A DNA stretch of 64,000 bases, taken from positions 96,579 to 160,578 of the forward strand of contig CAYYKJ010000003.1 of the NCBI GenBank assembly GCA_964441265.1. The letters run 5' to 3'. Below are positions 29,114 through 63,600 of the stretch, piece by piece. The stretch comes from an uncultured archaeon. Its GTDB lineage: Archaea; Aenigmatarchaeota; Aenigmatarchaeia; QMZP01; QMZT01. Below the pieces are notes generated by a model. That model did not search any database. It was not told the origin of the DNA and worked only from the letters and a program-made list of their open reading frames with translations. Both the position numbers and the translations under genes were made by a program. The first letter of the stretch is position 1; every line of letters begins with the position of its first letter.

Positions 29114-29350
29114 ATGAAGAGCGGAAGGGGGAAACCGGACAGGATACCAAAGAAGATAATAAAGATACTTCTAAAGCACAGCTACGGCCTCACCATAGGG
29201 GAGGTCTCCCGGCTACTGAAAATAAACAGGGCCACCGCCTCCAAATACCTCGCCATACTCGAGGCTAGGGAGCACATTCTCATCCGAAGGGTGGGGAAGG
29301 CAAAGCTCCACTACATAAGGAACAGGGAGATGGAGAAATGGCTGAAATGA
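29114..29350 (+). CDS. Winged helix-turn-helix DNA-binding protein
   Basis: GLTIGEVSRLLKINRATASKYLAILE...RRVGKAKLHY. Confidence 0.85.
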   Translation: MKSGRGKPDRIPKKIIKILLKHSYGLTIGEVSRLLKINRATASKYLAILEAREHILIRRVGKAKLHYIRNREMEKWLK

Positions 29351-45305: not shown

Positions 45306-45416
45306 GGACACCCCTCTTATTTGCGGACCTTATTATATGAACATACTATATTGACTGTGACTACTTATACTTAATCTAAAGCTAACTGATTTATAAATAT
45401 CCACATTCCGGGGACA

Positions 45417-46296: not shown

Positions 46297-46965
46297 CTAC
46301 CATTTCAGGTCACAGAGTATCCTGGAGAGCTCGTTCTCGTTCCTCACGACCATGGGGAAGTCCTTTATCTCCTTGAATTCCCGGTTAAGCCTGAACATAT
46401 AATTTATCAGGTTCTTTTCAGAGGAAATGGAAATTAGAGTGGATATTATCCTGATCACGACCTCAGCCCTGTATTTCTTGGTCAAGGACATGAGATTGGA
46501 GAAGAGCACGAAAAGGAATATGTCTGTGAATATGTCTGACCCGTATTTACCCAGCACATCCCTGTCGTTCCTGTAGAGTATCCTTATTTTTCTCAGGTCG
46601 AAAAGGGTGTCGTGATATTTCTCTATGAACTTCTGAACCTCTTCCCACTTGACCCTCACCAGATCATTCGGCAGCCACTGCCCAGGGCTCTCTATCCTCT
46701 CGGGCTGCGCATACCTGTTCTTTATGTATTTGGGTATCCAGTCGAACTTGGGCTTCAGGTATTTTCCGCTCTTCGTTATGTATCCGTCCTCTATCATGCA
46801 CTTGAAAAGGGGTTTTCCGAGGCCGGACTCGTTGTGGTAAAGATAGTTGGTCTTTATGCCCCATTTTGTCTGTATGCTGAAAAGGGACATCCCGTCCTTC
46901 CTGCTGGCGCAATTTATCCACACCAGCCAGAAGTTCTTATAACCGGTAAGCGTCGCCTTTGTCAT
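46297..46965 (-). CDS. Hypothetical protein (222 aa), possible winged-helix N-domain
   Basis: Long ORF with TATA-like upstream element; no recognised family. Confidence 0.7.
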   Translation of the reverse strand: MTKATLTGYKNFWLVWINCASRKDGMSLFSIQTKWGIKTNYLYHNESGLGKPLFKCMIEDGYITKSGKYLKPKFDWIPKYIKNRYAQPERIESPGQWLPNDLVRVKWEEVQKFIEKYHDTLFDLRKIRILYRNDRDVLGKYGSDIFTDIFLFVLFSNLMSLTKKYRAEVVIRIISTLISISSEKNLINYMFRLNREFKEIKDFPMVVRNENELSRILCDLKW

Positions 46966-47180: not shown

Positions 47181-50100
47181 TTATCCGATTTTTTTGAGGG
47201 AATTCTCCAGGGACTTGATTTTCTTCTGGTTCCTGCTCTTCAGGTCGTTGTACGCCTTCTCGGATATGATTCCCTCCTCATGCTCCTTCTCCACAAGATT
47301 CAGGACCTTCTGGGCCTTCTCCTTTTCCTTGAGAATGGATTCCTTCTCCTCTATCTTCTCGGAGGTCACGGTCTTGGGCTTGGGAGTCCCGGAGGCCTGC
47401 AGCTTGAAGAGCTCTTCCGCCGCCTTCTTCATTTTCTTGGCGAAGAAGAACAGGAAGACCACTGCACAGATCAGGACGGTAAGCAGTATTATCAGCCAGG
47501 GAGGGAAGCTTGTCACCAGCAATATTTCCACGAATGGCGCCTCGGAAAGAAGGTTCCTTGCCCTGTCGATGAACTTCCATCCCACGAACACCGCCTCCAG
47601 GGAATCGTCGTATCTTTTCTCGGAAAGATACCTTTCAGCATCTCTTATGGAATTCCTTATGTTGTCCAGAAGGGGCTCGATCTCCGAAACATCCTTTCCC
47701 ATCTTTTTGGCGCTTCCCACATCGACCTCCAGTTCCTGGAGCGCCTTCTTGAGCCTCTCTATCTCCCATTCTATGAGTTCTTCCCTGGAGCCGAAAACGG
47801 TTATTGAAACAGTCTTCTCGTCGCTGGTCTGGTTGGGTGCATAGGCGATGAGGCTTCCTATGTATTCCTTTGCCTCGGTGGAAACGGGCATGGAAAGCTT
47901 CACTGAGAATGTTGCCTCCTCCCCCTTCCTTATCTCATCCACTTTTTCGGGGGTGATCTCGAACCATGGAGAGGGGAACCTCCTGAATTTGAGGGTGACG
48001 TTGTAAACCGTGACGTTACCCGTGTTCTTCACGGTCACGGTGGGGTACTTGGTCTGTCCGGACTCTATCCCTATCTCCTGGGGGAATTGTGTGATTTCTA
48101 TCTGGGGCTCTCCCACCGCGACCTCTCCCGGAGCTGCCGGCGGGGCCGAAGGACCAGATGGTCCGCCCGGGGCAGGAGGAGCCGGAGGCGGTTCGGGAGC
48201 GCACTCGACTACGGAGAAGCTCGTGTTCGCCGTGGAGTAAAGGCTGTTGTTCTGGTCATAGGTTAGCTTGACGTTGAGCGCGTATTGCCCGACGGGCTGG
48301 TAAGAGGTGATGGGAAGGCTTTCCGTCAGGTTCTCTGTGTCTCCGCCCTCCACCTTCTCAGAGACGGAACTGTAGGACCATGTCTTGTTGCCGTCTGATA
48401 TCCAGAACTCCACCAGGTTCTCAGTAGCCACCTCCCCCTCGTTGGTAATGGTTATGACGAAATCCACCATGTCCGCCTGGCACACCTCGTATTCAAGCAT
48501 GTCGACGCTAACGTGATAGGGACCTCCGGAGACGATGCGGAAGGCCTTCATGTCCCATGATTCCTCGTCATTGTATTCGGTCCTCATAACGGCGAGATAA
48601 GGCCCCGTGGCCACGCTCTCCCCCAGGAACTCGCTGTACGACCAGAAGCCGGGATTGGAGCTGCTCATGTTGTCGATGGTGAGCTCCCTCCATATCTGGG
48701 GGCTGTAACCGGAGGTGTAATATATGGTCGTGTCGATCTCGTCGGGGTCAGTGTAGTTCCCGTGGTCCAGTACTATGGCGCTTATGGTCATGAACCCTCC
48801 CCTAGCCGTCATGTCCTGGACGTCGATCTTTCCGGTCAACTCCGTGTCTCCCTTCACCCGGAAATGGCTGACCGTGGAATTGTATATGGTGTCGTTTATG
48901 TATCCGTCCATGTAGGAGGAATTCTTGGTCACAGTGTAATTGCCCTCGGCTGCATCCGATGGTATGAGCATCATGATTCCGCCCTGCCCGTTGGAGCCCG
49001 TGGTCACGGAATTGCCTGTCCACATGTAATGGCTCACGTCATTCCCTTCCGGATCCTCCAGCGTGACGTTCACTTTGGTCCCCCCGAGCGGGTATCCGAA
49101 ATATTCATGACTGTACAACTGGATAGAACCTATGTCACCCTGATAATAATCCCCCACTGAGACATCAGTAAACAGCTTGTTGTGCACAATGAATTCGTCG
49201 CTGACCGTCCTTTCCCTGTCCTCGTTGTCCACAGCATGAAGAGCGACTTCATAGCTCCCCGTCACCGTCGTGTTTCCCCATGTACCGTGGTTTATGTCAT
49301 TCGGGTATTCCAGCTGATAGAAGAACACGTATTTCGAGTTGTTGATCGTGAAGCCCATATAATTCATGTCCCTCTGGAGGGTTATGTTCTCCGGGGTCGT
49401 CACGTTGACGTACATCGTCTTCACCCCGACCATGGAATGGTCTGTGACGTTGGCGAGTATCAAGATGTCCCCGGTCTGCTCTGTCTGGTTGGGGATTATG
49501 GCATAGGAAATGTCGGGCTTCACGAAGGGATTGAGAACCGCCTGGAGTGTCCTCGAGGAGGGATCGGATTCCGGCTGTTCCCCGGATACAGTATAGTTCG
49601 TGTAATAAAAGACCAGCGGAGCGCCGGTGGCGTTATAGTTCAGTGCGAATGCGTAGGAGGAAAGGTTCTTGACCTCGAAATCCGTGACGTTGGTCCAGGT
49701 GTAATTGGCCATGTTATCCGGGTCGGTGTTCGGGTCTATGGTGAAGTTTATGGGAACGTTTCCCGTGTTGTTTATGGTCACGTTGCACATGTTCCCTGCC
49801 GGGGGGGTCATGACCTTTTCGCAATACGAGGGGGTCATCGTCCATGTTCTCGTATTCGACACCATTATGGTCAGATTGATTTCATGGTAGCCCGCATTGT
49901 TGCTGGTCACGTTGACGACACCGCTATGAATTCCGGGCTGATAGCCGAGGGGCACATCCACGTTTATATCAACCCCCCTCGTTTCCCCCGGGTTCAATGT
50001 GTCCACGCCGGGCGCATCGAACGTGACGTTTAAATCATCCGTGATGTTCGCGACGCTGAACGTGATGTTGTAGACGTAATAGTTTCCGGTGTTGTTCAGT

Positions 50101-53096
50101 ATGAAGAAGTCCAAGTAGTTCTCCTGTCCGTGGGTGACGTTGCCGCTCACAGAGTCCTGCATGACATTGTAAACGGGTCTGGAAGTGACGTTTATGTAAA
50201 TCTGGCTCATGTTCGACCCGATTCCTTCTCCCGGGTCGGTCCAGTAAGAGGTCACGTTGACGTAATAGTCCCCGGGCGGGGTCCCCTCCTCGACTATTAT
50301 CTCAAAAGGCACCGAGCAGTTAGAGCCCTTTGTCACGTTGCCGCAGTCATGATAACTGGTGTTAGCGGTTATGTTGGTGGAGGAATAGCTCAGCGTTATG
50401 TTGGAAGAATATGCGGTCACGTTTCCGAGATTCTCTGTAATCACGTACAGGGAAAAGTTCTGGTCATCATAGTAAGAAATTTCATCTGCCGTGAAATTAT
50501 TATCGCTCAGGTTTATGCTCATGTTCGTTCCTGAGACCACCACGGTCAGGTTTATTGTCCTGTAACCGTCATTCCCCGAAGTCACGTTGATGATTCCGTC
50601 ATAGAAGCCGGGTGAATGCCCGGCCGTGACATTGGAGAGGATCCTCACTTCGTATCCGTCCCCCTCGTCTATCGAAGGTATATCGACCGGGTCGAATTCA
50701 AAGGTGAAGTTGGAGCCGAATCCGGATATGGTGTAATTGATATCAGTCAGGGGGGCGTTACCGCTCGCATATACGGTGAAGTTGTTTGAATTGGCGAGTG
50801 GCTTACCTCTCCCGATCATTCCGGTGAGATCGTATCTTGAAAGCGAAAGCGTGACGTTGGGATTGACGGTAACGTTGAGGATTGTGCCGTTAGTGTCCGT
50901 GGTCGAATCGTAATTCACCCAGTCCACGGAAATGTTTATTGAATAATTTCCTGCAGGCGTCCCCCCGAGCGCCGTTATGGTGAAATTCTTCTCGCAGTGG
51001 GTCGATATCGGCACGTCCCCGCATGACTTGTTCTGGGAATCCGCAGTAAAGTTGTTTCCGGGAAATCCCAGTGAAATGTTAACGTCAAAAGCGCTCCCGT
51101 TCATCAGGTTTGTGGCATTCACCGTTATGTTGAAGCTCTCGTTGTCCTCCCAGGTCACCTTTGTTACTGTGTAGTTATCGGGATCGGATGTCAGGGATAT
51201 GTAGGTATATGGGGATTCGCAGGTGAACTGGTCCGTGCCCCATCCGGTGTTGTTGTTCTTGGAGGCGCTGCAGTTCAGTGTGTAGGAAGAAGCGTTCGGG
51301 GGGGCGGTGAAATTAACGCCGTAGGTGCCGTCCCCGTTATCATGTATGGTTATGTCGTCCACATGGGGGGAATTCACCGAGCAGTTTACGGTGGCCCCGG
51401 GTATGGGGATATCCTTTCTGTAGTTCTTCACTTCGACCGTGGCGTTGACGAGCCTGTTGGTGAGTCCGTATTCATTCAAAACCGTCGTGTTGACGTAATA
51501 TTCGTCAGTAACCTGTATCGTGAATACCTCTTCGTTGAGAGTCAGCCAGTTGTCGTCATAAGACGTTATGGTTATGTTCCACGGACCGGCGGTATCGTAA
51601 TTCGAGAGGTTGAAGTAATTCGTATACATATGGTCTCCCGACTGGTTGTCGTAATGGGTTCCGTCATCATGCATGATCATCTCAAGGTCATCACCGGTAC
51701 CGGGAGTTCCCCTGTCTACCGTGGCGTTGACCTTTTTAGTGAGATTGTACGGATCGGAGGTGATATTCCCGGCTATTATCACCGTTTCGTTCCTGTTGAA
51801 GTATGTCACGTTGGTCCCGTTGAAATAGGCCCTTCCGTCTATCTGGACCGTGATCCTCTCGGTCTCGAGCATGGTTATGTTCAAGGGATTCACGAGCCTG
51901 TTACTCAGGTCCTTGACGAAATTCTCGTCACCCTGGGTGTCGTTGAACCTCAGAACGGACTTCTCATATATATAACCCCCGGGAGTCACGTTCACCGGAT
52001 CGAGGGCGATTCCTATCCTGTCGGCGGAGGGGAAGTTCCCCGCGTAGAAATCCGGGATGCTTTCGTTGACGTTTATTATCCCGAAATCCCATGAGGCGAA
52101 GGACTCGGCAGCCCATGCCCACGAGCCGGGGTCGGTGGAATTCCCGTTGTTAAGGTATCCTCCCCCCAGCGCCCTGTAGGCATCCAGTATCACAGCGCCG
52201 GGTCCGGGAGATTCCCTGGTTATGTTACTGCCGCCCATGTTGGTGAAATTCTGCTCCAGCTTCAGCCAGGAAAGGTTTGAATAAAAGGTGTATCTCTTTT
52301 TCATCCTCCCCTCACCGGTCTGGTTGTCCGGGTCGTTCCAGTAGGTCTCGTTTCCCTCCTGTTCCACCACTATCCTTATCGGTCCCTCATACAGCACGGT
52401 GAAGTTGTCCCTGAAGTCGAAGGAGAGATTGTTTGTGCCGTCCGAATACATTACGTATTCTATGGTCCTCTCCCCGGATCCGGGAACTCCGAATATGTCG
52501 TTGTAGGCGGGGGGGCTGGCTCCCTGAACCCTGTAAAGGCCGGACGTGTTTTCTCCCCTCTGGGTGTCCACATAATATCTCATAAGGGAGTTGTTGACGT
52601 TGAACTCCTCATGGGAGGTGTAGTTTATTTTCAGATCAGTGGTATAACTGGCGGCATCCTTGGGCCCGTTGTCCGTGACATCGAAGTAGACGAAATAATA
52701 TCTTTTTTCGTCCGCAGCAGTCGAACCGTTCATCAGGAACACGATCGTCCCCACAGCATTTCCGGAGGAATTGAAACCTTCGCCTTCATCGAACTGGAAC
52801 GGTACCTCCTGAATGGCCGTGCCTCCTGACCCGTATTCTATGACCATGGTGCTGTTTATGTCGAATTCGCCGGTATCGTTGAAATCCTCCAGAAGGGAGG
52901 TGAAATTGAGACGGTACTCAGCCGGCCAGTTTAGTCTGTCGTATCCGGTGGAATTTATTTCCAGACCGACCCTGTAGGTCCATTCGGTGTCCCACCAACC
53001 GAAACTCCCCTGCTGGGAGAGGGAAGAGGAAAAAAGATATACACTGATGACTGATAATACCAATATCATCATCAAAAAATCCTTTCTCAGCACCAT
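47181..53096 (-). CDS. Giant surface protein (1971 aa): DUF2341-like N-terminus, many Ig/CARDB/NEW3-like domains, TM, SHOCT-like cytoplasmic tail
   Basis: Signal peptide, WWDTEWTYR, DDGTHYD...GD..Y motif, dense N-x-S/T, Pro linker, TM, GIISEKAY. Confidence 0.85.
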   Translation of the reverse strand: MVLRKDFLMMILVLSVISVYLFSSSLSQQGSFGWWDTEWTYRVGLEINSTGYDRLNWPAEYRLNFTSLLEDFNDTGEFDINSTMVIEYGSGGTAIQEVPFQFDEGEGFNSSGNAVGTIVFLMNGSTAADEKRYYFVYFDVTDNGPKDAASYTTDLKINYTSHEEFNVNNSLMRYYVDTQRGENTSGLYRVQGASPPAYNDIFGVPGSGERTIEYVMYSDGTNNLSFDFRDNFTVLYEGPIRIVVEQEGNETYWNDPDNQTGEGRMKKRYTFYSNLSWLKLEQNFTNMGGSNITRESPGPGAVILDAYRALGGGYLNNGNSTDPGSWAWAAESFASWDFGIINVNESIPDFYAGNFPSADRIGIALDPVNVTPGGYIYEKSVLRFNDTQGDENFVKDLSNRLVNPLNITMLETERITVQIDGRAYFNGTNVTYFNRNETVIIAGNITSDPYNLTKKVNATVDRGTPGTGDDLEMIMHDDGTHYDNQSGDHMYTNYFNLSNYDTAGPWNITITSYDDNWLTLNEEVFTIQVTDEYYVNTTVLNEYGLTNRLVNATVEVKNYRKDIPIPGATVNCSVNSPHVDDITIHDNGDGTYGVNFTAPPNASSYTLNCSASKNNNTGWGTDQFTCESPYTYISLTSDPDNYTVTKVTWEDNESFNITVNATNLMNGSAFDVNISLGFPGNNFTADSQNKSCGDVPISTHCEKNFTITALGGTPAGNYSINISVDWVNYDSTTDTNGTILNVTVNPNVTLSLSRYDLTGMIGRGKPLANSNNFTVYASGNAPLTDINYTISGFGSNFTFEFDPVDIPSIDEGDGYEVRILSNVTAGHSPGFYDGIINVTSGNDGYRTINLTVVVSGTNMSINLSDNNFTADEISYYDDQNFSLYVITENLGNVTAYSSNITLSYSSTNITANTSYHDCGNVTKGSNCSVPFEIIVEEGTPPGDYYVNVTSYWTDPGEGIGSNMSQIYINVTSRPVYNVMQDSVSGNVTHGQENYLDFFILNNTGNYYVYNITFSVANITDDLNVTFDAPGVDTLNPGETRGVDINVDVPLGYQPGIHSGVVNVTSNNAGYHEINLTIMVSNTRTWTMTPSYCEKVMTPPAGNMCNVTINNTGNVPINFTIDPNTDPDNMANYTWTNVTDFEVKNLSSYAFALNYNATGAPLVFYYTNYTVSGEQPESDPSSRTLQAVLNPFVKPDISYAIIPNQTEQTGDILILANVTDHSMVGVKTMYVNVTTPENITLQRDMNYMGFTINNSKYVFFYQLEYPNDINHGTWGNTTVTGSYEVALHAVDNEDRERTVSDEFIVHNKLFTDVSVGDYYQGDIGSIQLYSHEYFGYPLGGTKVNVTLEDPEGNDVSHYMWTGNSVTTGSNGQGGIMMLIPSDAAEGNYTVTKNSSYMDGYINDTIYNSTVSHFRVKGDTELTGKIDVQDMTARGGFMTISAIVLDHGNYTDPDEIDTTIYYTSGYSPQIWRELTIDNMSSSNPGFWSYSEFLGESVATGPYLAVMRTEYNDEESWDMKAFRIVSGGPYHVSVDMLEYEVCQADMVDFVITITNEGEVATENLVEFWISDGNKTWSYSSVSEKVEGGDTENLTESLPITSYQPVGQYALNVKLTYDQNNSLYSTANTSFSVVECAPEPPPAPPAPGGPSGPSAPPAAPGEVAVGEPQIEITQFPQEIGIESGQTKYPTVTVKNTGNVTVYNVTLKFRRFPSPWFEITPEKVDEIRKGEEATFSVKLSMPVSTEAKEYIGSLIAYAPNQTSDEKTVSITVFGSREELIEWEIERLKKALQELEVDVGSAKKMGKDVSEIEPLLDNIRNSIRDAERYLSEKRYDDSLEAVFVGWKFIDRARNLLSEAPFVEILLVTSFPPWLIILLTVLICAVVFLFFFAKKMKKAAEELFKLQASGTPKPKTVTSEKIEEKESILKEKEKAQKVLNLVEKEHEEGIISEKAYNDLKSRNQKKIKSLENSLKKIG

Positions 53097-53097
53097 A

Positions 53098-54603
53098 TCA
53101 TCCTTTTTTTGACATTATCTTCTTTGCCTTCTCGTAAGCCCTCTTGGAAATAAGGCCCTTCTTGTAAGCCTTCTCCAGTCCCTTCAGAGAACCGTGTTTT
53201 TTTGCAGCTTCTTCAGGGGCCTTTTCAGAAGGCGCGGCCTTTTTCTCCGGGGATGGCCTGCCAGACCCCGAGGAAAGACTGCTTATCTTCTCGTCAATCT
53301 CCCTGAGCTTGGCCATGTTTATCTTCTTGGTTTTCTCGTATTCCTTCTTGGGTATTACCGCGGACTTATAGCCCTCCTCCAGCGACTTCAGAAGGCTCTC
53401 TATCTCTGATTTCTCGTTCTTCAGCTTCTCCATCTCGGAGCCCCCGCCCTCCGCGGCGGCGGGCGCGGAAACCTTGACCGCCTCCAGGTCCTCCTTGGTG
53501 GCGAAATTCTCGAGCTTCTTGTTCATCTCATCCACGCTGGTGGTGAGGGAATCTACCATGGACTCGTACCTGTCCTGCTTCCTCTTGTAGATGTCGAACT
53601 CCTCCATCTTCCCGGACATGTCCGCGTAGAGGCCGTGTATCTTGTCGGAAAGCTTCTGTATGTTGGTCTGGACGTTCTTCATCTCCATGAGCTTTTCCGT
53701 GCTCTCCTTGCCCATGTTTACCATGTTCTCCAGACTCCCTATGTTGGTTATGACGTTCCTGAGGCGCTTTAGTATCTCGTCTATGCTCTGGAGCTTGCCC
53801 TCTAGCTTGTCTATCTTGATGGACTGGCTGGATATCTCCTTGTCCTTTTTTCCCATCTCGCTGATTATCTTCTCCGGCTCTATCTGGGAGACCACGTCTG
53901 ACATCTTCTGTATCTTGGTTTCGTAATTCTTCATCATGGTCTCTCTCTGGAATATTATTGATCTCAGCTCGGCTATGTTCTCCATGGCCCTCTGCACCTT
54001 TTCGCTGTCCACCTTCCTCATCTCCTTCACGCTCTCAACCGCCGCTTTCATCTTCTCCATGTCTATGTTGAACCTCTCCAGCTTCTTCTTTATCTCGTCC
54101 GCGTCCTTCTCCCCTATCTTGGCGCTCAGGTCGGAAACCACCTCCTTGAACCGGTTGGTCATGTCCGTTTCTATCTTCCCCACGTCGATAGCCGGTTCCT
54201 TCTTCTCCGGCGATCTTTCCGGGGTCCTCGGCACCGGAGCAGGTGCGGCAGAAGCAGCGGATGCCGGGGCCGGTTTATTTCCGGCGGCCGCCGGAGGCGG
54301 CTCGGAGGCGCCCTTCTTGACGTCCTTTATGGCCTTCTTCCTCTCCTCGGCGATCCTCTTTTCCCTCTCCTTCTGGATGGACTTTATCCTCCTGTTTATC
54401 TGATCGAGCTTGGCCGTGTTCTTGTTCTTTATGTCCTTGTAGTCGTCCTCCAGTATGGTGGCCTCATAATAAGCGTCCTCCAGAGAAGAGAGGAGTGTCT
54501 CTATTTCTTCTTTCTCGCGCTTCAGCTCCTCCAGCTCATCCGAGCCCTTCGGAGCTTCCTTTTCTTTCTTCTCCTTTTCCTTCACCCCTTTCTCCCCCGC
54601 CAT
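53098..54603 (-). CDS. Cytoplasmic coiled-coil protein with three SHOCT-like hairpins (501 aa)
   Basis: LEDAYYEATILEDDY / LEEGYKSAVIPKKEY / LEKAYKKGLISKRAY; Pro/Ala linkers. Confidence 0.8.
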   Translation of the reverse strand: MAGEKGVKEKEKKEKEAPKGSDELEELKREKEEIETLLSSLEDAYYEATILEDDYKDIKNKNTAKLDQINRRIKSIQKEREKRIAEERKKAIKDVKKGASEPPPAAAGNKPAPASAASAAPAPVPRTPERSPEKKEPAIDVGKIETDMTNRFKEVVSDLSAKIGEKDADEIKKKLERFNIDMEKMKAAVESVKEMRKVDSEKVQRAMENIAELRSIIFQRETMMKNYETKIQKMSDVVSQIEPEKIISEMGKKDKEISSQSIKIDKLEGKLQSIDEILKRLRNVITNIGSLENMVNMGKESTEKLMEMKNVQTNIQKLSDKIHGLYADMSGKMEEFDIYKRKQDRYESMVDSLTTSVDEMNKKLENFATKEDLEAVKVSAPAAAEGGGSEMEKLKNEKSEIESLLKSLEEGYKSAVIPKKEYEKTKKINMAKLREIDEKISSLSSGSGRPSPEKKAAPSEKAPEEAAKKHGSLKGLEKAYKKGLISKRAYEKAKKIMSKKG

Positions 54604-54655
54604 ATTGATAATTGTTTCCTCGTTTTTTTATATCCCGCCTTTCCGGTCTCCGGAA

Positions 54656-57600
54656 TCACATGTTGAGGCGGTTCTTCAGCGATTCTATGTAGCTCTTGGC
54701 CATGTCGAACTGGCCGGCCTTCATCTTGTCCCTGGCCAGGTTGAACTCAAGCTCTATGTCAGTGGTGTCCACGTTCTTGGCCTTCATGCCCTCGATCATC
54801 TTCTCTATCTTCTCCACGTCCTCATTCACCTCCACGTAGTTCTTTATCTCCTTGTCCGTCAGCCTTCCGGTGTCGTGGAGAAGCGGCCTGAGCGAAACGA
54901 AATATGGCTTACCCTCGTTGTATGCCGGGTTCTGCATGAGTGCGGTCCCCGTGGTCATCTTGACCACCTTGGATGCGTAGTCAGTCCCGTACTTCTTCTT
55001 CACCCTTCCTATGTCGCCCTCGTATTTGGTCCTCAGCTGTATCTCGGTCGCTATGTTCGCCCTTATAGCTCCCCTGAAGTCCATGAGCACCTGGGATATC
55101 ATGAACACGCCTATGCCCCACTTACGGAACTCCCTGCAGGCACGCTCCAGAGCCACATAACCGCCCTTGCCTCCGTATTTGGGAAGCAGGCGGTGGACCT
55201 CGTCGTACACCAGAAGGAGCTTTATTTCCTTCTCCTCCGGAAGCGATGCCTTGAATACGGAGGACACGGTCTTTCTCACGAACTTGTCTATCTCGGTCGG
55301 CTCCATTTTGTTCATCACGAAAACGGTTATCTCACCGGGTTTCCTGTACTTCTGTATGTCCACCTCCATCTTTGGGTCGGTCACCAGCAGTATGTTGGTC
55401 TTGAAGTTCCTTGCATCGTCCGGCTTGATGCCGAATTTCGGATAGAGTTCGAACATGCGCTTGTCCTGGCACCTCTTTATGAAGCCGGTCCACTGGGCGG
55501 TGGGGTCGAAAACTATTATGGGTATCTTCCTCTTCAGGAGCTCCTCTGCAATGACCATTGCTGAAACGGACTTGCCCGCTCCCGTCGCTCCCGCTGCCAG
55601 CGAATGCATCATGAGGGCTCTCGTGTCGAAGTAGGCGGTCACGTCCGTCTCGGCTATCTTTCCTATGGGTATGGTGTGAGTTCCCTTCTGGGGAAGCTTC
55701 TTCATGTCCAGCGGGAAGACATACTTGGTCTTCTTCTTTTTCTTGAGTTTGTACATTATCCAGAATCTCCTGCCCAGGTATATCGCGGGTATGGCCAGGA
55801 ACGCTACTGCATACGTTATCCAGCTCATGAACACCATCCTGAGCAGGCGGACCGGAGCGGGAACCATGAGTATGTCGAACGAATCCACCGCATAGGCCGA
55901 CTTCTTCCCGTACCAGTAGCTCACGTTTACCTCCACCACGTACCTGTCCTGAGGGGCATCCTCGGGGATGAATATCTTCTTGGTGAAGGATTTGACGCTT
56001 TCCACAGCGAGCGTCTCCTTGTTCCTCACTATGAGGACGTCGTTCTCCAGCCCGCGGACCTCGTAATTCACCACTATGTCCTCCACCGTCGCTGTCGGCC
56101 CCATGTTGAGTAGCGTCACCTCAAACTTCAGGTTCCCTCCCGGCTCCACCGATTTGGTTAGCGTCTTGACGTTGACGTCGAGAAGCGGCTCCTCGGGCTT
56201 CTCTATTTTTATGGTGACCGGGGTGACGTGAGTGATGTTCCTGTCCTTGACCTTCATGACTATGTCCCCGGTATATATGCCCTCCTGGGTGGTGGGAAGT
56301 GTGTAAAGCTTCACCTTTACGACATGGGTCGATTTCCCCTCCACGGTGAACACCGGCTTCTCTATCTGCACCAGCTCCCAGACGTTCCCGGTGACACTGG
56401 AAGTGACCTCCATGTCCTGCCCGAGGTTGTTGGTGATGTCGATGGAATGTATCTCATGCTCCCCCGGCTTGAGCGTGACGAATATGAGAGTCGAATCTAT
56501 GTCAACGGGAACCCTCGCGCCGGCTCCGGTAGGCGGTGCGATGGCCGCACCCGCGCCTGCCCCTGCCCCTGCACCGGCTCCTGGGGCGGCTCCTTCGCCT
56601 CCGCCCTCCTCCTCTTCCTCTTCCCCGGGTCCGGTCGGGCAGTCCTGGGGACAGTTAGCGTTGGATTCACCGTAATCAGTATCGCATCTCCCGTCGCCGC
56701 ATATGAACTGGGCCAGTATGTATACACCGTCAAGATCGGTGGTGTTGTATGTCAGGGTCGAATCCGTGGTGTTTATGAGGATTTCGCTGGCATCCGTCCT
56801 GTTCCAGGTGTCGTTGCACACGTTCAGAAGTTGGATCGAATCGTTGACTGACCAGTCTATCTTGCAGTTATATATTCCGAGCGTCGTGACCGAGGTGTCG
56901 GGATACGCGGAATAATCAAGCACCATCTTCCCCATAGAATAGTTGAATTTGTTGTTGACCGCGAACCCTCTAAGAGCGCCGGGCCCCAGGTACTGGGTCG
57001 GGAGGTTCCCGAAGAGAATGGGATTGTACATGTCACTGAAGAGCGCCGAGTCCAGCAGGTATATAGTCTCGTTCCACACGTTCATCCGAATATCGTAGTA
57101 TCTCGCATCGATGGTCTCGTTGTACGTCCCGTCGGTGGAATTCGTGCTTATGTTGAAAAACAGAGGGCCCGTCTCCAAGTCCCCGTAGAGCAGGAAGTTC
57201 ATGTCCACAACGTCGTCCGTCACCGGGGCGATGTCTATGCTCTCTCCTGCCAATATAACCGCGGGATATATCTCGAACGTCTTGTTGGAGGAATTGCAGT
57301 TTCCGCTCTTGTCGCAGGCGGTTACGTTCACCATGTACATGCCCGACTCGGAGGTGTTGGTGTAATTGAAACCGAAGACATAAAGATCATCCGTCTTCAA
57401 GATGAACGTCATGTTCGCGCTGGTGCTGTGATTGGAGGGTGTGGTTATGGTCACGCTCGCGTTCTCCGCTCCCCCGGGATCGGTTACGTTGGCCCTTATC
57501 CTGGCGGTGTCGTTCACCGGTACCCTGTCGTCCATGTCTATCACGACATCCGGCGGGGTCTCGTCTATGTATATGACCGCCTTCTCTTCGGTGTCGGCGA

Positions 57601-60600
57601 GGTTTATGCCATGCATCGGGTATATCGCATCTGCGGTGAGGTCGTATCCCCTCTCCTTGCTGATGTTAGGAGCGGTGAAGTTGATCCTCCAGTAGCCGCC
57701 GTCAGAATAATAATTATAGCTGCTGATGTTCGCATTGACCGAAGAGCTCTCATTCGAAAGGGTAATGTTCCACAGCAGTCCGAAGGTGACGTTGGAACCG
57801 GAATAGGTGACGTCCACATTTGCAGTCAGGTTGTCTCCGGGGGAGACCCGCAGGTAGGGCGATGCCTGGGTGGGCTGCAGGATGTCCACGAATAAAGGAT
57901 GGATGGTCATGGACAGCGAGGTCTCCCTGGTGGTTGGGTCCGCCGTGTCGTTGTAAGTACGCAGGTACCCGCTGTATTCTCTTACTGTATCGAAGGAGGG
58001 CACGGAATAGTTTATTCCTATGTGTTCTGTGTCACCTATTCCAATTGTCATCTGGGTGACGTTGGGGGTTATGAGAGGTGCTATCAGACCGAATTCCAGG
58101 ACCTCCAGAAGTATGATCATGTTGCCCACGTTCTGTATCATGATGTCCCCCAACTCACCCGAGGTTCCCTGGACCACGTCCACTTCAATCTCGTCCGGGG
58201 TCTGGTCCCATGTTAGATTTACCGGTATTTTTACATATATATCAGCCGTATCATAGGTCCCATCGCCCGAAGCGTTCAGCGTCCCGTTGTAGTCCCCGGC
58301 CGGGAACATCTCCGGAACGGTTATGCTCAGGTCGACCGGGCTCGTCCATCCGGAAGGGAGGGATTCTATGGTCGGCGGGCTGAACCACCACGTGAAATTC
58401 TGGCAGACCGTCCCGTTCTGGCAGATGAACTGGATGTTCGAGACATTAGAATTGCCCGCTGACCTTATGCTGAAGCTCTCGTTCTTTGTCAGGCCGGAAG
58501 CAGTTATCATTGTAACATTCTCATCGATTACCTCTATTATCGGGTTCGGGAGCACGCTGAAATTTATGGTGGTCGTGTTGCTTCCCGGCGAACCGTCGAG
58601 GTTGGTCCAGTTGGCTGTCAGGTTCGCGTAGTAAAGGCCCGGAGGTGTCCCGTTGGCTGCGGTTATCTTCACAGTGCCGTTTTTGGTGGCGTTTCTGAGT
58701 ATCGTCCCGAAGGTGAAGTTACCCGGGACGGACATCCATCCGGAGGGTATGCTCACGTTCAGCGTGAGATCGTAGGCCCTCGCGTATCCCGTATTGGAAA
58801 TGTTGAAGGAGACGGAAGAGTTCTCGCCGTTGTATATTGTGATGTTTCCCATGCTGATAGCGCTCTCATTCGGGGTTATCGCTATGGGGGTGTCTCCCTT
58901 TGCGGTGAGATAAAACGGTGAAGTACAGGTGAGGAGAGAAAGCGTGTCATTCGCGCATATCCTCAATTCATAATCCCCCGAAACATTGGTGCTGTAAGTC
59001 GTGTTGAAGAATGACTCGTTTCTGTCCATGTATTTTCTGTATTCTGTCTCTTCCGAGTACAAAACAATGGAATAGTCCAGCCAGGCAGTGTAATTGGCAT
59101 CTGTGGAACCGCCGCTCAGGTTGTAAACGGAAAGGTTTATGGTCTGGTTGCCCGGGAGCGTGAAGTTCGACCCCGCGGAGACAGCATCTACGGTGAAGTT
59201 GGTGGAGTTTTCTATGGACTGATTCTGGGCTATAAGAAGGCCGTTCACGGTGAGGTTGACATACATAGTCGTGTTATCGTTGGAGTTGTGTACGGTGACA
59301 TTGAAGTACCGGAGCGAGCCGCTGTGATTCATGCTCTCGGTGTGATTGAAACCATCATCCGGAACGGAATCATTGTGTATGGTTCTGGATTCGTTCGTGT
59401 AATTGGACAGTGCTATCATGGTCACGTTTATCCATGCCTCATCCACGTCAAAGTTGTCTGTTATGGTGGCGTTGACCGTGACGTTCTCGAATATTATCTC
59501 GAATGTCCGCGGGTGGACGGACGCATCTTTTATGGTGGGGGGAACGTCGGTGACGTTCAGATACATATCGGTCGAGTTCTCCGTCGGGTCCGCCAGGCCG
59601 GTGTCATCCCTTATGAGAAGATTCACGTAATACATGTCATGCACCTTGCTGGGGGATACGTCATATGTGACATTTATCGACCTCTCTGCCTGCTTGTTCA
59701 GGGTGAAGAAGGACGGATTCTCCAGGACCATGTCCGTCCCGTTGCCCTGCTCGTAGATCCTGAATGTGAGGTCGACGTTTCCTATGTTGGTGAGGTTTAC
59801 CAGACCGGCCAGGCCGTCAGTGTTCGGTGGGGTGAGAAGGGTTCCGAAAGTGGAGGGGGAATAGACCCAGGAAGAATTGAGCGAGACATCGAGGTTCATC
59901 ATGGACTGGTCGAAATTCGCGTTCGAGGGGCTCGCCCTGACGTAAGTCCAGTAAATCCCCGGATCCTGCCCGGCGGGGACGTCCACGGTAATGTCAGTAG
60001 TGAAGTTATCCCCCGCCGCCAGATAGTCATAGGAGAAGGGTATCATCTCGACCTCGCATCCGGGGCATTTCGTGGATAGGTTGCCTCCTATGAGCTCCAG
60101 GTCGATGAAGGTCAGCCCGTCGTTCCCCTCGGAGACGACGGTTATGTTACCCACATAGGTTTCACGGTCGTGCGGGACGGTCTCGTTGACGAAGCTTTCC
60201 ACTATGTTCAGAACCGGATTGGATATGACCACAACATCCGTCAAGTTTGTGGTGGAGTTCAGGGTCCTGTCGGGATTCATCCAGGTCCCGTTGCCGTAAA
60301 GCCTGATGAGCCCGGGAGGGGTCTTTGCCTTCACAGTAAGCTCCATCGTCCACGAGCAGTTTTCTCCCGGGCTCATGTTCCCGCAGTAATGATAGCTCTC
60401 GTTGGATACGATGTCGTGAGGGTCCCTGTCATCGTATACCGTGAGGTTGACGTTGTATGCGTATGCCGGACCCAGGTTGGTGAAATTTACGGTGAAATTG
60501 AATACGAATCCCTGGTTCTGCGTGATGTTGGTGGCCTCTATTTCGCCTATCTGGTCGATTTTTCCGTCCACCTTCCCCCAGACGTATATGTACCCGGAGA

Positions 60601-63600
60601 AGGAGGAATTGGTGTTGAATTCCGGTCCTATGTCCTTCGCGTATACTGTTACGTTATAGGTCCCGTCCATCTTCGGAAGGTATTCCGATCTGTACGTATC
60701 GTTACCCTGCGGGGTCAGCGTCAGGTTATCATAGCTCCCGTTCGGGAGTCCTATGTGAGCCCAGACCCCGCCGGAGGGGATTCCGTAATCGTCAGTGACG
60801 TTCGCCGATATGTTCACGTAATCCAGGTATGCTTCTATGCTCTGGTTCGGGAAGATGGAGGAGTTATGGATGTCCGGTGCCACCAGGTCCTTCACCCATA
60901 CCTTTGCATGGTCGCTCGTGGTCCTGGCCGTGTAGAGCTTGCTCATGTCATCGCTTATGTTGCAGGCAAAGGTCACATTGCCCTTGTCGAGCGGGTTCCA
61001 TGTCGCATTCGCGTAACCTGATGAATTGGTCTGGTATGTCCCGTTGTAGACCCACGACCCGCTGGAATCGTTCCAGTAGGAGAAGTTTACTGAATAGTTT
61101 TCCACCGGCCCCTGCGAAACGTAGTCCTCCACGTAGCATATCCTCTCGAAGGTGAACGGATACTGGATTATGCTCTCGTCAGGCGGAGATGTCCAGTAGA
61201 CGTCCGCCCAACCGGTTATCACCACGATCACGGAGTCTTCTCCCGTATCATAGAACGGGCGGGAGGATTCCGCGGTCATGTTCCTGCTTCCCGTCTGCTG
61301 GCCGCTTGAGTCGTAAAGCTCCTCCTCTCCCGCCACGGTCTGGGTAAGGAACGAGGTCTCGTTGTACCATTCCACGTCCTCTATCCCATTCCAGTCGTTC
61401 CCGTTCTCGTCCCACACGTCCGCCTTGAAATGTATGTTGTCCCCCTTACCGTAGTTCGTCCCGTTAGCCGGAATTGTGATGTTTACGATGAGAACACCGT
61501 TCACGTTTATGTTCGTGGTGTTGGTGATGGAATCCTCGTTGGTTGAGGGTTTGGTGGCATTTATGTATATCGTCTGGGATCCAGGGGTTATGGTGTCGTG
61601 GGGATTGTAAACGAAAGGTTCACCGCACCAGCCGCTCGAGTTCGTGGAGCAGTTGCCGAGCCAGACGGTGGAATTGTAGAAATCCACTGTCGCATTCTCC
61701 ACCGGCACCTCCAGCGCGGCGTCCATTATCCTCACCGTTATGTTGGTGGTGTAAGGATCGCACCTTGAGCAGGTGTCGTTCCTGTGTATGGTCGGGTCGG
61801 AGACGGATATCTCCTCGATCACCAGCGGTCTCGTGACAAGAACCCATGTGGTTATGTCAGGGACAGATGCATTGTAATATTCGGACGGGTAATCGTCTAT
61901 CACACAAGTCAGGTTGTGCCAGCCGGGCGGCTTGTTGGTGCTCCAGTAGAACGTGGCGTTCCCGTCCGTGGACGTGTTGACTGTGCCGGTCAGGTTCCCG
62001 TTATGATACAATTCCACCGTGTAATTCTCCAGGTTCACGAGCGTGTTGGCATCCCTTACGTGGCACATCACGTTTATGGTCGGGCCCGCCATGTATGAGC
62101 TCTCGTTCGGGGGAAGTATCATGTCCAGCTCGCTCCACCCGTATATGGTGATGCTGGTGGAATTCGTGTTCTGGTCGTAATATTGCATGGTGGTGTTGGC
62201 GTGGATGGTTTCCGGTCCCATCTCGAAATCATGGGGTATGAACCAGGTTGCGTTGTATCCGCTCGTAAGGTAACTCCAGCTCCCGTCGTACCATGAGACG
62301 TTTGTGTCGTTCACCTCGTTTGAGCAGTTGTCATGGACTGTTGCATTAAGATAGACCGTGGTGTTCCTGTTCAGTATCATGCCGTCCTCCGGGTATATGA
62401 GATTGTCATACAGCTGGCCTATCACCGTGAAGTCGTTCACACTCGTGTTCTCATATTCGTAACAGCTGTCGTTGGTCCCGCCTATCCAGTGCTGAACCCC
62501 CACATATGACGTGCATTCAGGGTCATGATATGCATAGCAGCTCCCGTCCTCCGAAGAGCAGTTGTAAGAGAGCGTGTAATTGGTACCGTTATCTGTCACC
62601 CATATCGCCCCCACGCTCCCGTTGGGGTATCTTCCCCAGTCAGAATCATATATCGTGAAGTTGAGAAGGGCTGTGTTGCTGCCGATCCTTCTCACGGTGG
62701 AATTGCTGTTCCCCGTGTTCACGTTCACCGAATCCTCCGTGAGGTTGAACGTCAGGGGATCCGTCTCGTCGGTATAGTTGAACGGGTCTGTAGCCCTGAA
62801 CTTGTAGTAATTGACCTTCCCCGGGCTCGGCGAAGAATCGGCACAGGTGAATTTCTGGCTGTACTGGTAAACCACGCCCCTGCCGCTTATGCTCGTCCAG
62901 TTTATCAGCTCCCATGTCGCGTTGTTCAGGCTGTGCCAGGTGGTGAGGTTGTTGACGTTGTAGTCGTCGTCCCTGAAGGTCACGGAGAAGGTGTAATCCC
63001 TGCCCCATCCCTCGATAGTCGGCCACACCGACGGATCATAGACCGTCGGGGCCGTACCGAGGTTGAAAGAATTGACCTGCAGTGTGACGTTGTCCCCGTA
63101 GAATTCCTTGGAAACCATCATCGAAAGGTTCCACCACCCCCTCTGCTGGGAGGTGGAGTCCCATGTGCAGTTGTACCATCCCTGGCTCTCGTTCCAGCTC
63201 ATGGTGGTGGGTTCCCCCGGCTTGCAGTATCTGGTGTTTCCCCCCCTCTTCATCTTGTACACCGTCGTGGCATCCTCTATCAGCCCCAGGTCTGCCGAGC
63301 AGTCGTCCTCAAGCCATCCCAGCATGGAGACGGGATCTCCCTGCAGGAATCCCTCTTCTACCGGATAATATATGTTCGGCCTGAGATCGGAATTCACCGT
63401 TACGTTATACTCGGTCGAATTCGTGTCCTTGTAGCAGCTATCATTGAATATCCCTCCCTTCCATTCGTGTATGCCGACCGTGTAATTGCATTCGCCTATG
63501 GGAGTCTCCCCGGGGCTCAGGAAATTCAGGTTTATGTAGCCATTGCTGCCGTTAACTCCGGAATCCTGGCCTATGTCCCAGCTGTAGGGATCGGATGCGT

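Follow-up and report, generated by a model that had tools for sequence, protein, structure and literature searches.

A Giant Surface Protein with a C-Terminal HerA/FtsK-Superfamily ATPase Domain and a Dedicated Helical Partner Gene in a DPANN Archaeon

The DNA analyzed here (64,000 nucleotides, referred to below as the window) carries on its minus strand the 3′ part of a gene encoding a giant surface protein. Translation of the open frame at 54656–64000 gave 3114 residues, and the only stop codon was the terminal one (54656–54658). The following features were located in this gene:

54656..64000, minus strand: giant surface-protein gene, 3′ part (3114 codons and a stop codon)
55853..64000, minus strand: extracellular part inside the window (2716 aa, 170 N-x-S/T sequons)
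55781..55837, minus strand: single transmembrane helix with the hydrophobic core MVFMSWITYAVAFLAIPAI
55730..55750, minus strand: KLKKKKK, a lysine-rich, positive-inside stop-transfer stretch
54890..55675, minus strand: RecA-like core of a HerA-clade ATPase, assigned by profile, fold and motifs
55568..55591, minus strand: Walker A motif, GATGAGKS
55490..55510, minus strand: FDPTAQW motif
55199..55219, minus strand: Walker B motif, LLLVYDE
55115..55135, minus strand: REFRKWG motif
55091..55096, minus strand: SQ motif
54668..54856, minus strand: C-terminal three-helix element after the core, from the AlphaFold2 model and conservation

The extracellular part is rich in Asn, Ser and Thr. It contains Ig-like domains, and Pfam matches to NPCBM_assoc/NEW3 (E 4e-15), Filamin (E 2e-7), Big_7 and Big_3_3 were found in it; a low-complexity Gly/Ala/Glu linker precedes the final two membrane-proximal domains. 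The frame passes the window edge and reaches the last base of its own contig, which gives a protein of at least 4403 aa whose N-terminus lies beyond the contig end. A preliminary description of this DNA had proposed a stalk of more than 2700 aa and had looked to the adjacent sequence for the 5′ end of the gene. The giant ectodomain stands, but the figure was too low, and the adjacent sequence lengthened the frame without supplying its beginning. The window frame is colinear, at 48% identity, with residues 10082–14524 of a 14,526-aa open frame of genome G095, and the full-length protein is probably longer than 10,000 aa; the longest open frames of the family comprise 14,526 and 14,695 aa. Another contig of the same genome (C2) has at 160864–179421 a 6185-aa frame that starts with a signal peptide and runs off the contig end; it matches residues 699–2114 of the 14,526-aa orthologue at 35% identity, and if it joins the window frame the protein would exceed 10,588 aa. 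The genome to which the window belongs contains three giant-ATPase genes, two of which are complete (2942 and 5176 aa) and start with signal-peptide-like hydrophobic segments.

A search of 1.84 billion cluster representatives with the 414-aa C-terminal piece gave 1010 matches at E ≤ 1e-3, 511 at E ≤ 1e-10 and 355 at E ≤ 1e-30, the best having E = 4e-188. The gene family was found in 93 of the 201 genomes of the window's phylum, and its closest named relatives come from MAGs labelled Aenigmatarchaeota. Since the architecture is conserved across this family and in all three copies of the genome, the fusion of stalk and ATPase is genuine and is not an assembly artefact, the alternative that the preliminary description had named. 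Two DNA runs contained 0.98 and 0.96 of the words sampled from 54600–57000; their contig pieces covered only 56588–57000, i.e., a region outside the junction between the membrane helix and the ATPase. The window gene is a real, conserved gene of DPANN archaea.

In the AlphaFold2 model of the 414-aa piece, the membrane helix comprises residues 15–57, and a comparable hydrophobic segment lies 30–130 aa ahead of Walker A in 143 of 150 family representatives. The 15 residues following the helix carry a net charge of +7. N-glycosylation sequons number 247 in 3967 outer residues (6.2 per 100 aa) versus none in 368 cytoplasmic residues, and the paralogues have 5.9 versus 0.28 and 5.6 versus 0 sequons per 100 aa outside and inside, respectively. 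Both signals place the ATPase on the cytoplasmic side, in agreement with the initial assignment. The linker between the helix and the core is short (about 20 residues), so that the axis of an ATPase ring would face the membrane, an arrangement also found in coupling proteins.

The model (pLDDT 90.0, pTM 0.84) contains a core at residues 76–337 and three C-terminal helices at residues 349–411. The Walker A, Walker B, RK and SQ motifs reported earlier were found intact at the coordinates given above, and all named motifs are included in the 61 columns that are at least 95% identical among 148 aligned domain sequences. Walker A is kept in 150 of the 150 best representatives, and REFRKWG aligns with REGRKFGVG of the Thermococcus kodakarensis HerA. 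The three-helix element is also conserved in the family (Y355, E385 and Y404 at 95% or more), and relaxing the Pfam search to E ≤ 10 gave no match for it. The domain had been described as having neither a HAS barrel nor a large insert, and this holds: about 55 residues separate the membrane helix from Walker A, no HAS-barrel family was found by Pfam in the window protein, and only short helices connect the core strands of the model, the helical-bundle insert of HerA being missing.

Under the name SPEARE, a 2019 paper described giant DPANN surface proteins in which a C-terminal membrane helix leads to a conserved P-loop domain in the cytoplasm; it states at least one laminin-G domain for their outer adhesion domains and notes SPEARE-like sequences in Aenigmarchaeota (PMC6642349). 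Its SI lists the latter relatives (Fig. S17, Table S3), and the lineage of the window might be among them. According to the accessible part of a 2023 re-analysis, the SPEARE domain can be re-read as an ATPase, a "straw" channel for secretion is hypothesized, and a second ATPase gene follows the nanohaloarchaeal giant genes (PMC10266531). The architecture, which had at first been taken as unprecedented, is thus one already published for Nanohaloarchaeota, with relatives noted in Aenigmarchaeota. Like SPEARE, the window protein is very long, mostly extracellular and adhesin-like, crosses the membrane once close to its C-terminal end and continues inside the cell with a conserved P-loop domain and several helices. 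A scan of its C-terminal 3114 aa at E ≤ 0.01 revealed no laminin-G, protease or toxin-like domain.

The window ATPase is 42–54% identical over the full domain length (E down to 1e-131) to C-termini of proteins in the phylum labelled Nanohalarchaeota, where matches at E ≤ 1e-20 were found in 27 of 70 genomes. In this phylum, the ends of open frames of 7869 to 9433 aa are 42–44% identical to it, and the protein P0185 (2130 aa) from "Nanohaloarchaeota archaeon QJJ-7" is 50% identical. When the ATPase part of P0185 was compared with proteins of 3729–5000 aa, 35 matches were obtained, none of them named SPEARE. Judged by the Nanohaloarchaeota homologues and the published descriptions, the DPANN archaeon almost certainly has here a giant surface glycoprotein of the SPEARE type, and the window ATPase is the C-terminal domain that this protein exposes to the cytoplasm. 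The predicted layout is a signal peptide (seen in both complete paralogues), thousands of N-glycosylated residues in Ig-like and NEW3 domains, the membrane helix, the lysine-rich stretch, a stripped-down HerA-clade ATPase and three helices.

Membership of the ATPase in the HerA/FtsK superfamily, suggested in the preliminary description, was borne out by the profile search, by fold scores that were best for HerA and by a Pfam match to DUF87 (E 2e-10), which covers only positions 1–62 of the 220 in the profile. In the profile search, HerA-family chains alone were significant; FtsK had E = 0.03 and no VirB4 chain appeared at E ≤ 1. The Pfam family FtsK_SpoIIIE (PF01580) has no match in the window protein at E ≤ 0.01. 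Wider comparison of the domain with its possible relatives gave a divided answer, since the sequence profile points to the HerA clade, whereas the fold nearly ties HerA and VirB4. Judged by sequence, the domain belongs to the HerA clade, and "VirB4/TraG-like" is not the best label for the window member. It shares with HerA the RecA-like core and the motifs Walker A, D-P-x-G/T-x-W/Y, D/E-E-x-H, R-E-G/F-R-K-x-G and S-Q. Unlike HerA, it has neither of the two additional elements mentioned above nor a NurA or effector partner, and it is anchored in the membrane behind a giant ectodomain.

This relationship raises the possibility of a DNA translocase, i.e., a ring that would pump double-stranded DNA. 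Like FtsK or the Ced import ATPase, it would move DNA, here from the host where the two cells touch, for nucleotides or exchange. The closest relatives of solved structure are indeed dsDNA translocases (HerA-NurA), the best NCBIfam match is CedD (NF053655), weak ResIII and FtsK_SpoIIIE Pfam matches occur in some members of the family, and biosynthesis is reduced in DPANN archaea. However, the CedD match spans 70 residues around Walker A and reaches 35.5 bits where the cut-off is 600; for the HerA equivalog models the scores are 28.3 bits (cut-off 800) and 22.3 bits (cut-off 970). No nuclease or NurA gene was found by Pfam in the gene cluster described below, which also lacks a Ced-type membrane protein, and the missing barrel and insert of HerA speak against this role as well. 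In addition, the accessible part of PMC10266531 describes SPEARE proteins as having no endonuclease domain. Uptake of DNA, which is near the DNA-processing idea in the accessible part of PMC6642349, is considered quite unlikely.

The giant gene belongs to a cluster of 11 co-directional genes, the spacing between neighbors ranging from −29 to 215 nt. The following genes are located downstream of it:

53098..54603, minus strand: partner gene directly downstream of the giant gene, encoding a 501-aa all-helical protein
47181..53096, minus strand: second surface protein (1971 aa) with a signal peptide, NEW3 and a membrane helix at residues 1853–1890
46297..46965, minus strand: 222-aa soluble protein of no assigned family, conserved in close relatives only
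45417..46247, minus strand: archaeal MinD-type ATPase (TIGR01969, 233.7 bits, cut-off 201.75)
35230..45311, minus strand: six more genes in the same direction, encoding soluble coiled-coil proteins (682, 798, 637, 178, 247 and 828 aa)

The partner protein contains helix-hairpin motifs at residues 20–98, 388–444 and 465–500 and, in its center, a bundle of three long helices (residues 166–367). Its family has exactly three members in the same genome, one directly after each giant-ATPase gene, and the partner HMM is specific there: the three partners have E-values of 3e-155 to 5e-42 and the next match 1e-8. Partner-family proteins of about 500 aa are encoded downstream in 19 of 20 loci of the window's phylum and in 72 of the 76 DPANN loci with room downstream; the two samples share loci and are not independent of each other. 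The records that contain the 76 loci carry the labels Aenigmat-, Nanohal-, Woese-, Micr-, Alti-, Parv-, Undin- and Nanoarchaeota. Stop and start codons overlap or directly adjoin each other at several loci. A bacterial-type terminator scan, which is ill-suited to archaea, revealed no site on the minus strand in the 52-nt gap between the giant and partner genes, and the same scan gave 8 terminator-like sites at 52900–54900 versus 3.1 ± 2.0 in shuffled sequences. No fusion of the partner with the ATPase was found among 251 proteins.

When the modelled partner was compared with PDB structures by Foldseek, there were no matches at E ≤ 0.001, and none of 32 partner relatives carries a Pfam domain. 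Identification of the hairpin motifs as SHOCT was considered and rejected: the scores lie below the cut-offs (SHOCT_2, E 0.007, 16.9 bits versus 24; SHOCT, E 0.043, 14.0 bits versus 27), and these matches are confined to the C-terminal motif, the other motifs having none.

The second surface protein ends in an 80-aa cytoplasmic tail with a partner-like helix-hairpin motif (partner HMM E 2.6e-6), and such a protein is encoded downstream in 17/20 and 40/59 loci. The other genes are less widespread: MinD was found in 12/20 and 11/59 loci and the 222-aa protein in 8/20 and 0/59, and a search of 10-kb flanks found relatives for the first of the six coiled-coil genes only (2/20 loci). The search of the Protein Atlas with the 222-aa protein gave a best score of 0.85 and no family. 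The coiled-coil genes are separated by gaps of −29 to −1 nt. In the phylum labelled Nanohalarchaeota, the gene after the giant often encodes a second ATPase of the same family, which shows that gene contexts differ between lineages. The window's lineage differs from SPEARE in having the helical partner as the next gene instead of a second ATPase, and it adds the 1971-aa anchored protein, MinD and more coiled-coil genes. The literature search on the operon and on the HerA reading found nothing beyond PMC6642349 and PMC10266531. The accessible parts of PMC11329633 and PMC11420986 (DPANN cryo-tomography and attachment organelles), PMC10936187 (a survey of ODZ DPANN) and PMC6393860 (a review of "archaeal dark matter") contain no mention of HerA, giant proteins, MinD or coiled coils in such a sense. 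The gene context of the giant ATPase, including the dedicated partner, is new relative to the published SPEARE description.

The window domain has the fold of the VirB4 C-terminal domain and belongs to the same superfamily as VirB4, TrwB/VirD4 and EccC/EssC, which are membrane-associated rings with the axis facing the membrane; should the window system be a pump, it may operate in a similar way. It differs from them in the lack of a significant sequence match and in having one membrane helix per chain. To our knowledge, all superfamily members that are anchored in the membrane and have been well studied (FtsK, TrwB/VirD4, VirB4, EccC/EssC) serve as translocation motors, and this favors pump models. 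In a type IV- or type VII-like exporter, the ring would drive effectors through a membrane-helix pore and along the ectodomains to the host, the helical proteins encoded downstream being candidate effectors. The short linker in the model corresponds to the geometry of a coupling protein, type VII substrates are helical, and the cluster is full of helical proteins without signal peptides. The "straw" hypothesis of PMC10266531 is of this kind, and the second ATPase genes in the phylum labelled Nanohalarchaeota match its report.

The conduit of the preliminary description was in essence the same idea, and several observations argue against it. None of the columns of the membrane helix is 70% or more conserved among the 148 aligned domain sequences. 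The 11-gene cluster contains no polytopic membrane protein (at most a signal peptide and one membrane helix) and no VirB6-like or pilin Pfam families. The N-domain of VirB4 (PF03135) was found neither in the window protein (E ≤ 0.01) nor anywhere in the genome, which is 89.8% complete, and VirB4 chains were absent from the profile matches, as noted above. Strings of Ig-like domains are known to form rods, not tubes, and the one-to-one pairing of partner paralogues with ATPases is more readily explained by a structural role of the partner than by a set of exported substrates. Export through such a structure is regarded as unlikely. A separate type IV pilus-like gene set is located 40 kb from the cluster.

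We favor over the conduit a model in which the protein would be the hub of a host-attachment apparatus. Solved HerA, FtsK, TrwB and VirB4 act as rings, and by analogy the ATPase probably forms a ring, in line with the hexamer of the preliminary description, which would lie directly beneath the membrane and cluster several giant stalks. ATP would be used to act on the dedicated helical partner or to assemble with it, and it is rather likely that the ATPase binds this protein encoded immediately downstream. The second anchored surface protein shares the hairpin motifs of the partner in its cytoplasmic tail. Archaeal MinD positions surface machinery; together with the MinD-type positioning ATPase and the coiled-coil proteins, the hub would make up a transmembrane apparatus that links the outer adhesin to an inner scaffold and has no hollow conduit. 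We assign a probability of about 0.4 to this mechanism as a whole, i.e., the ring, its action on the partner and the host-attachment apparatus. Counting against it are the translocation function of the membrane-anchored relatives, the short linker with its coupling-protein geometry and the limited spread of MinD and the extra coiled-coil genes (11/59 and 0–2/20 loci), as well as the sub-threshold SHOCT scores, the lack of partner–ATPase fusions and the variation of context between lineages. The Mycoplasma attachment organelle offers an analogy, without homology being claimed: in a small wall-less cell attached to a host, large adhesins are tied to an inner coiled-coil core, but these adhesins carry no ATPase domain.

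A further possibility is that the ATPase acts on its own polypeptide or complex, in quality control, extraction, processing or release of the ectodomain, or that it serves as a nucleotide-dependent switch reporting outer contact inwards. As the titles of the matched entries indicate, defense-type HerA rings are assembly platforms more than pure pumps. Outer and membrane/cytoplasmic peptides of the Ca. Nanohaloarchaeum antarcticus protein occurred in different size fractions, which may reflect processing (PMC6642349, accessible part). However, the ATPase would be made last, after co-translational export of the ectodomain, and could not drive its own export; in addition, the strict tie to the helical partner is left unexplained. 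A role in biogenesis or turnover seems very improbable.

Returning to the attachment hub, a bolder version can be considered, although we doubt it. The giant ATPase, its one-to-one partner and the second anchored giant might be the core of an undescribed, DPANN-wide, ATP-driven machine for cell contact. A ring of HerA-like domains beneath the membrane would hold as many as six glycoprotein stalks, each longer than 10,000 aa, and would thread or remodel the linker-and-hairpin chain of the partner, so as either to pass force or signal between host contact and a MinD-positioned scaffold or to export helical proteins in a type VII-like manner without a polytopic channel.

DPANN archaea must touch their host cells physically, and few of the molecules that mediate this contact have been described. 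In genomes of about 1 Mb, the giant family takes up several per cent of the sequence, and it couples the cell surface to a conserved internal ATPase. A published but vague description is now split into testable parts, namely a 360-aa ATPase domain predicted to be soluble and well-folding, a specific partner of no known family, another anchored protein whose tail carries a matching motif, and MinD, in an operon without the parts required by a type IV system.

Translation of positions 54656–64000 of the window revealed a single open frame on the minus strand, and the membrane helix, the KLKKKKK tract and the Walker A, Walker B, RK and SQ motifs named in the preliminary description are all present in its last 395 residues. 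The frame and its motifs are as follows.

54656–64000, minus strand: giant gene, 3114 codons, with the stop codon at 54656–54658
55781–55837, minus strand: core of the hydrophobic helix, MVFMSWITYAVAFLAIPAI
55730–55750, minus strand: KLKKKKK
55568–55591, minus strand: Walker A, GATGAGKS
55490–55510, minus strand: FDPTAQW
55199–55219, minus strand: Walker B, LLLVYDE
55115–55135, minus strand: REFRKWG
55091–55096, minus strand: SQ

The source assembly (1.36 Mb, 18 contigs, completeness 89.8%) contains three giant-ATPase genes, namely the gene of the window and two complete paralogues, C3:4774–13602 (2942 aa) and C5:61252–76782 (5176 aa). Each paralogue has an N-terminal signal-peptide-like segment, and their ATPase domains are 52–54% identical to that of the window. 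A search of 1.84 billion cluster representatives with the 414-aa C-terminal piece retrieved 1010 proteins at a threshold of E ≤ 1e-3, of which 511 reached E ≤ 1e-10 and 355 reached E ≤ 1e-30. Walker A was kept in all 150 best matches, a hydrophobic segment was located 30–130 aa ahead of it in 143 of them, and 64 were at least 2000 aa long (longest, 7665 aa). In view of the three copies in the genome and the conservation of both elements, the fusion is a genuine gene and not an assembly artefact, nor is it rare. Strong purifying selection on the ATPase domain was shown: 61 columns were at least 95% identical among 148 aligned domains, against no column of the membrane helix at even 70%. Matches at E ≤ 1e-20 were found in 93 of 201 genomes of the phylum Aenigmatarchaeota (45/92 of those at least 90% complete; 52/119 genera), with open frames of up to 14,526 aa. 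The named sources of the matches were for the most part Aenigmatarchaeota MAGs; further labels were Micrarchaeota, Nanoarchaeota, Woesearchaeota, Nanohaloarchaeota, Altiarchaeota, Parvarchaeota and Undinarchaeota. Two members on short contigs, L063 (3.5 kb, labelled Heimdallarchaeota) and L134 (labelled Methanosarcinales), each have a helical partner gene downstream; both bins are labelled as non-DPANN archaea, and these members may be binning errors, mis-binning seeming likelier than transfer.

The family comprises several orthologous lines. Paralogues like C3:4774–13602 keep a strikingly constant length, with open frames of 2942–2994 aa across many genomes, and carry Pfam domains of the PQQ-like beta-propeller type; a second class is about 2200 aa long. 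Frames of 14,526 aa (G095:C3, loci L053–L055) and 14,695 aa (G204:C1:60082–61164, locus L130, labelled Undinarchaeota) end in the HerA-like ATPase domain, and several more of 13,200–13,500 aa were found in the phylum scan. The G095 frame opens with 90 codons that resemble a separate winged-helix gene read through. In the 1.36-Mb source genome, 34 open frames of at least 1000 aa were listed, many with signal-peptide-like starts and at least one pair being shadows of each other; this genome makes an unusually heavy investment in giant surface proteins.

The window corresponds to C3:96579–160578. The giant-gene frame extends past it to the final base of contig C3, so the giant protein is at least 4403 aa long and its start is missing. 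Recovery of the 5' end from the adjacent sequence, as had been proposed, lengthened the frame to this extent, and the start lies beyond C3. The available 4403 aa are colinear with residues 10082–14524 of the 14,526-aa frame of G095, a genome of the same family (48% identity). Outside the window, contig C2 (160864–179421) contains a frame of 6185 aa that carries a signal peptide and runs off the contig end; it matches residues 699–2114 of the G095 orthologue (35% identity). Although C2 and C3 are separate contigs, this frame probably supplies the front half that the giant gene lacks. Because of the G095 colinearity and the match of the C2 frame to the N-terminal part of G095, the complete protein would probably exceed 10,588 aa.

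The topology signals of the giant protein are strong. The N-x-S/T sequons numbered 247 per 3967 outer residues against 0 per 368 residues past the helix; the corresponding values were 149 in 2512 against 1 in 362 for the first paralogue and 264 in 4731 against 0 in 377 for the second. The 15 residues past the membrane helix have a net charge of +7, and both signals agree with the intracellular position of the ATPase that had been deduced from the KLKKKKK tract. A giant glycoprotein therefore carries the ATPase core on its cytoplasmic end, with a spacing of about 20 residues between core and membrane.

An AlphaFold2 model of the 414-aa piece, built on a 31-sequence alignment, was confident (mean pLDDT 90.0, pTM 0.84). 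It consists of a long helix (15–57), a short linker, a RecA-like core (76–337) and three C-terminal helices (349–411), leaving no space for a HAS barrel and showing no large helical insert, as the compact domain of the preliminary description implied. Using Pfam, DUF87 (HerA central domain) was matched at E 2e-10, limited to profile positions 1–62 of 220, and HerA_C weakly. No NCBIfam model matched the domain above its threshold (CedD scored 35.5 bits with the cut-off at 600, HerA_Thermprot 28.3 with 800 and helicase_HerA 22.3 with 970). In a profile search of PDB sequences with the 31-sequence alignment, HerA-family chains alone were significant: 4d2i (E 1.3e-10), 9x1l (1.8e-9), 9c1m (4e-9), 8xau (2.3e-8), 8wiv (2e-7), YjgR (4.2e-7) and 8ziq (3.6e-6). 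DotL (0.0026), FtsK (0.03) and TrwB (0.31) followed, and VirB4 chains were absent at E ≤ 1. The HMMER alignment paired REFRKWGIG...ISQ with REGRKFGVG...VSQ of Thermococcus kodakarensis HerA. Fold comparison gave scores of 25.4 for HerA 4d2i_B (further values 3.1 and 255), 25.1 for HerA 9x1m_A, 24.6 for HerA 8xaw_D, 23.6 for VirB4 4ag6_B (2.7 and 235), 23.5 for DndH-C, 19.4 for TrwB, 17.8 for FtsK and 17.3 for EccC. These profile and fold scores place the domain in the HerA/VirB4 branch of the FtsK–HerA superfamily, and the initial HerA/FtsK-type guess was correct. The proposed comparison with HerA, VirB4, TrwB and FtsK singled out HerA by sequence, and by fold HerA and VirB4 are nearly tied. 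A HerA orthologue was excluded, since the barrel, the insert and a NurA partner are lacking and the scores are far below the cut-offs.

Very long nanohaloarchaeal proteins were named SPEARE in PMC6642349. According to that paper, they are largely extracytoplasmic with a membrane helix close to the C-terminus, their intracellular portion is the most conserved and was read as type III restriction-like, production was detected by proteomics, and similar sequences occur in Woesearchaeota, Aenigmarchaeota, Micrarchaeota and Altiarchaeales. In PMC10266531, the domain was reinterpreted as a "VirB4/TraG-like ATPase" with a coiled coil behind it, a second ATPase gene was placed immediately downstream of the giant, the giants were proposed to be secretion "straws", and a 9,409-aa protein was given as the largest in cultivated archaea. 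The present results shift the family label towards HerA. In the phylum holding a record labelled Nanohalarchaeota, the ATPase was matched in 27 of 70 genomes. In five of these (G256, G226, G243, G244 and G254) the match ends a 7869- to 9433-aa frame (42–44% identity), and a further frame of 623–677 aa that also contains this domain follows within about 1 kb, which is the arrangement described in PMC10266531; no such tandem duplication was seen in the lineage of the window. Because of its architecture, its homology to nanohaloarchaeal giants and the statement in PMC6642349, the protein of the window belongs to the SPEARE kind. The literature search, supplementary material aside, gave nothing further on the family or its gene context.

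The suggested conduit through the ectodomain repeats the "straw" hypothesis of PMC10266531, and it gained no support here. The membrane helix is unconserved, the gene cluster encodes no channel-type membrane protein, and no VirB4 N-domain was found in the 89.8% complete genome. Strings of Ig-like domains, moreover, are known as rods.

From 64000 down to 35230, eleven minus-strand genes are separated by gaps of −29 to 215 nt.

Gene 1, minus strand: giant ATPase gene
Gene 2, minus strand: 501-aa helical protein (partner)
Gene 3, minus strand: 1971-aa protein
Gene 4, minus strand: 222-aa protein
Gene 5, minus strand: archaeal MinD (TIGR01969, 233.7 bits against 201.75)
Genes 6–11, minus strand: six coiled-coil proteins

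Partner and ATPase genes are strictly linked, and the partner HMM is specific. The source genome has exactly three partner-family members, one directly behind each giant-ATPase gene (E 3e-155 to 5e-42 with the partner HMM; next ORF, 1e-8), and the remaining coiled-coil proteins of the cluster were unmatched. Of 20 loci sampled across 20 genomes of the phylum, 19 have the partner behind the ATPase gene, the sole miss being a contig that ends 218 nt past the ATPase gene. The same order was found in 72 of the 76 loci that offer 1.5 kb or more downstream (all except L079, L117, L123 and L127), drawn from the 80 best loci of a species-representative collection spanning the labelled DPANN lineages; the two samples overlap and are non-independent. 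The partner model is all-helical (pLDDT 74), with hairpins at 20–98, 388–444 and 465–500, a bundle of three long helices (166–367) and disordered linkers. Foldseek gave no PDB match at E ≤ 0.001, and none of 32 database relatives carried a Pfam domain. A SHOCT-like label for the hairpin motif was rejected, with scores under the cut-offs. In the 1971-aa protein, a signal peptide is combined with a membrane helix (1853–1890) and a cytoplasmic tail of 80 aa; this tail contains a partner-type hairpin motif and is matched by the partner HMM at E 2.6e-6. The other neighbours are less constant: relatives of the 1971-aa protein were found downstream in 17/20 and 40/59 loci, MinD in 12/20 and 11/59, and the 222-aa protein in 8/20 and 0/59. 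In the ten downstream products of the cluster, membrane-type segments are limited to at most one signal peptide and one membrane helix each.

Other features of the window were also recorded.

6039–8192, minus strand: 718-aa frame in which Oxidored_q6 (NADH-quinone oxidoreductase 20-kDa-type) is combined with intein splicing and LAGLIDADG endonuclease domains; it encodes a hydrogenase/complex I-like small subunit that bears an intein
12085–13113 and 13190–15032, minus strand: two tandem 148-aa pilin-like genes, first 40 residues identical (MRKAQSAMEYLMTYGWAILIV...), adjoining two genes for T2SSF/TadC-type membrane proteins, with which they make up a type IV pilus-like set apart from the giant-gene cluster
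25728–28322, minus strand: 865-aa secreted protein, opposite in strand to the RCC1-type gene, in the region just upstream of the coiled-coil genes
29338–33048, plus strand: secreted protein of 1237 aa carrying RCC1-type beta-propeller repeats
33048–35224, plus strand: included in the region of two more secreted or membrane proteins after the RCC1-type protein
36001–44000: GC skew −0.27 to −0.33 and AT skew −0.36 to −0.43, because the Glu/Lys-rich coiled-coil genes have a purine-rich coding strand

These characteristics allow us to propose, with a probability of roughly 40%, a host-attachment apparatus. By analogy with solved relatives, the HerA-like domains would form a ring gathering several giant stalks together, and ATP turnover would be coupled to partner binding or remodelling. 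The partner could bridge to the tail of the second anchored giant (the 1971-aa protein), with MinD positioning the assembly within the cell. The Mycoplasma attachment organelle, which combines adhesins with a coiled-coil core, has a similar layout, by analogy and not by homology. The same ring could instead power protein export, which we consider unlikely, or, with somewhat smaller odds, DNA translocation. Both pumps keep real weight because, to our knowledge, the well-studied membrane-anchored members of the superfamily are all translocation motors and because the ring axis would point at the membrane. Whether as part of an attachment apparatus or a pump, the giant gene is a new member of the SPEARE family. 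Its gene context is the new part, and it provides a defined testable module consisting of the ATPase domain, a 1:1 helical partner, a second anchored giant and MinD.
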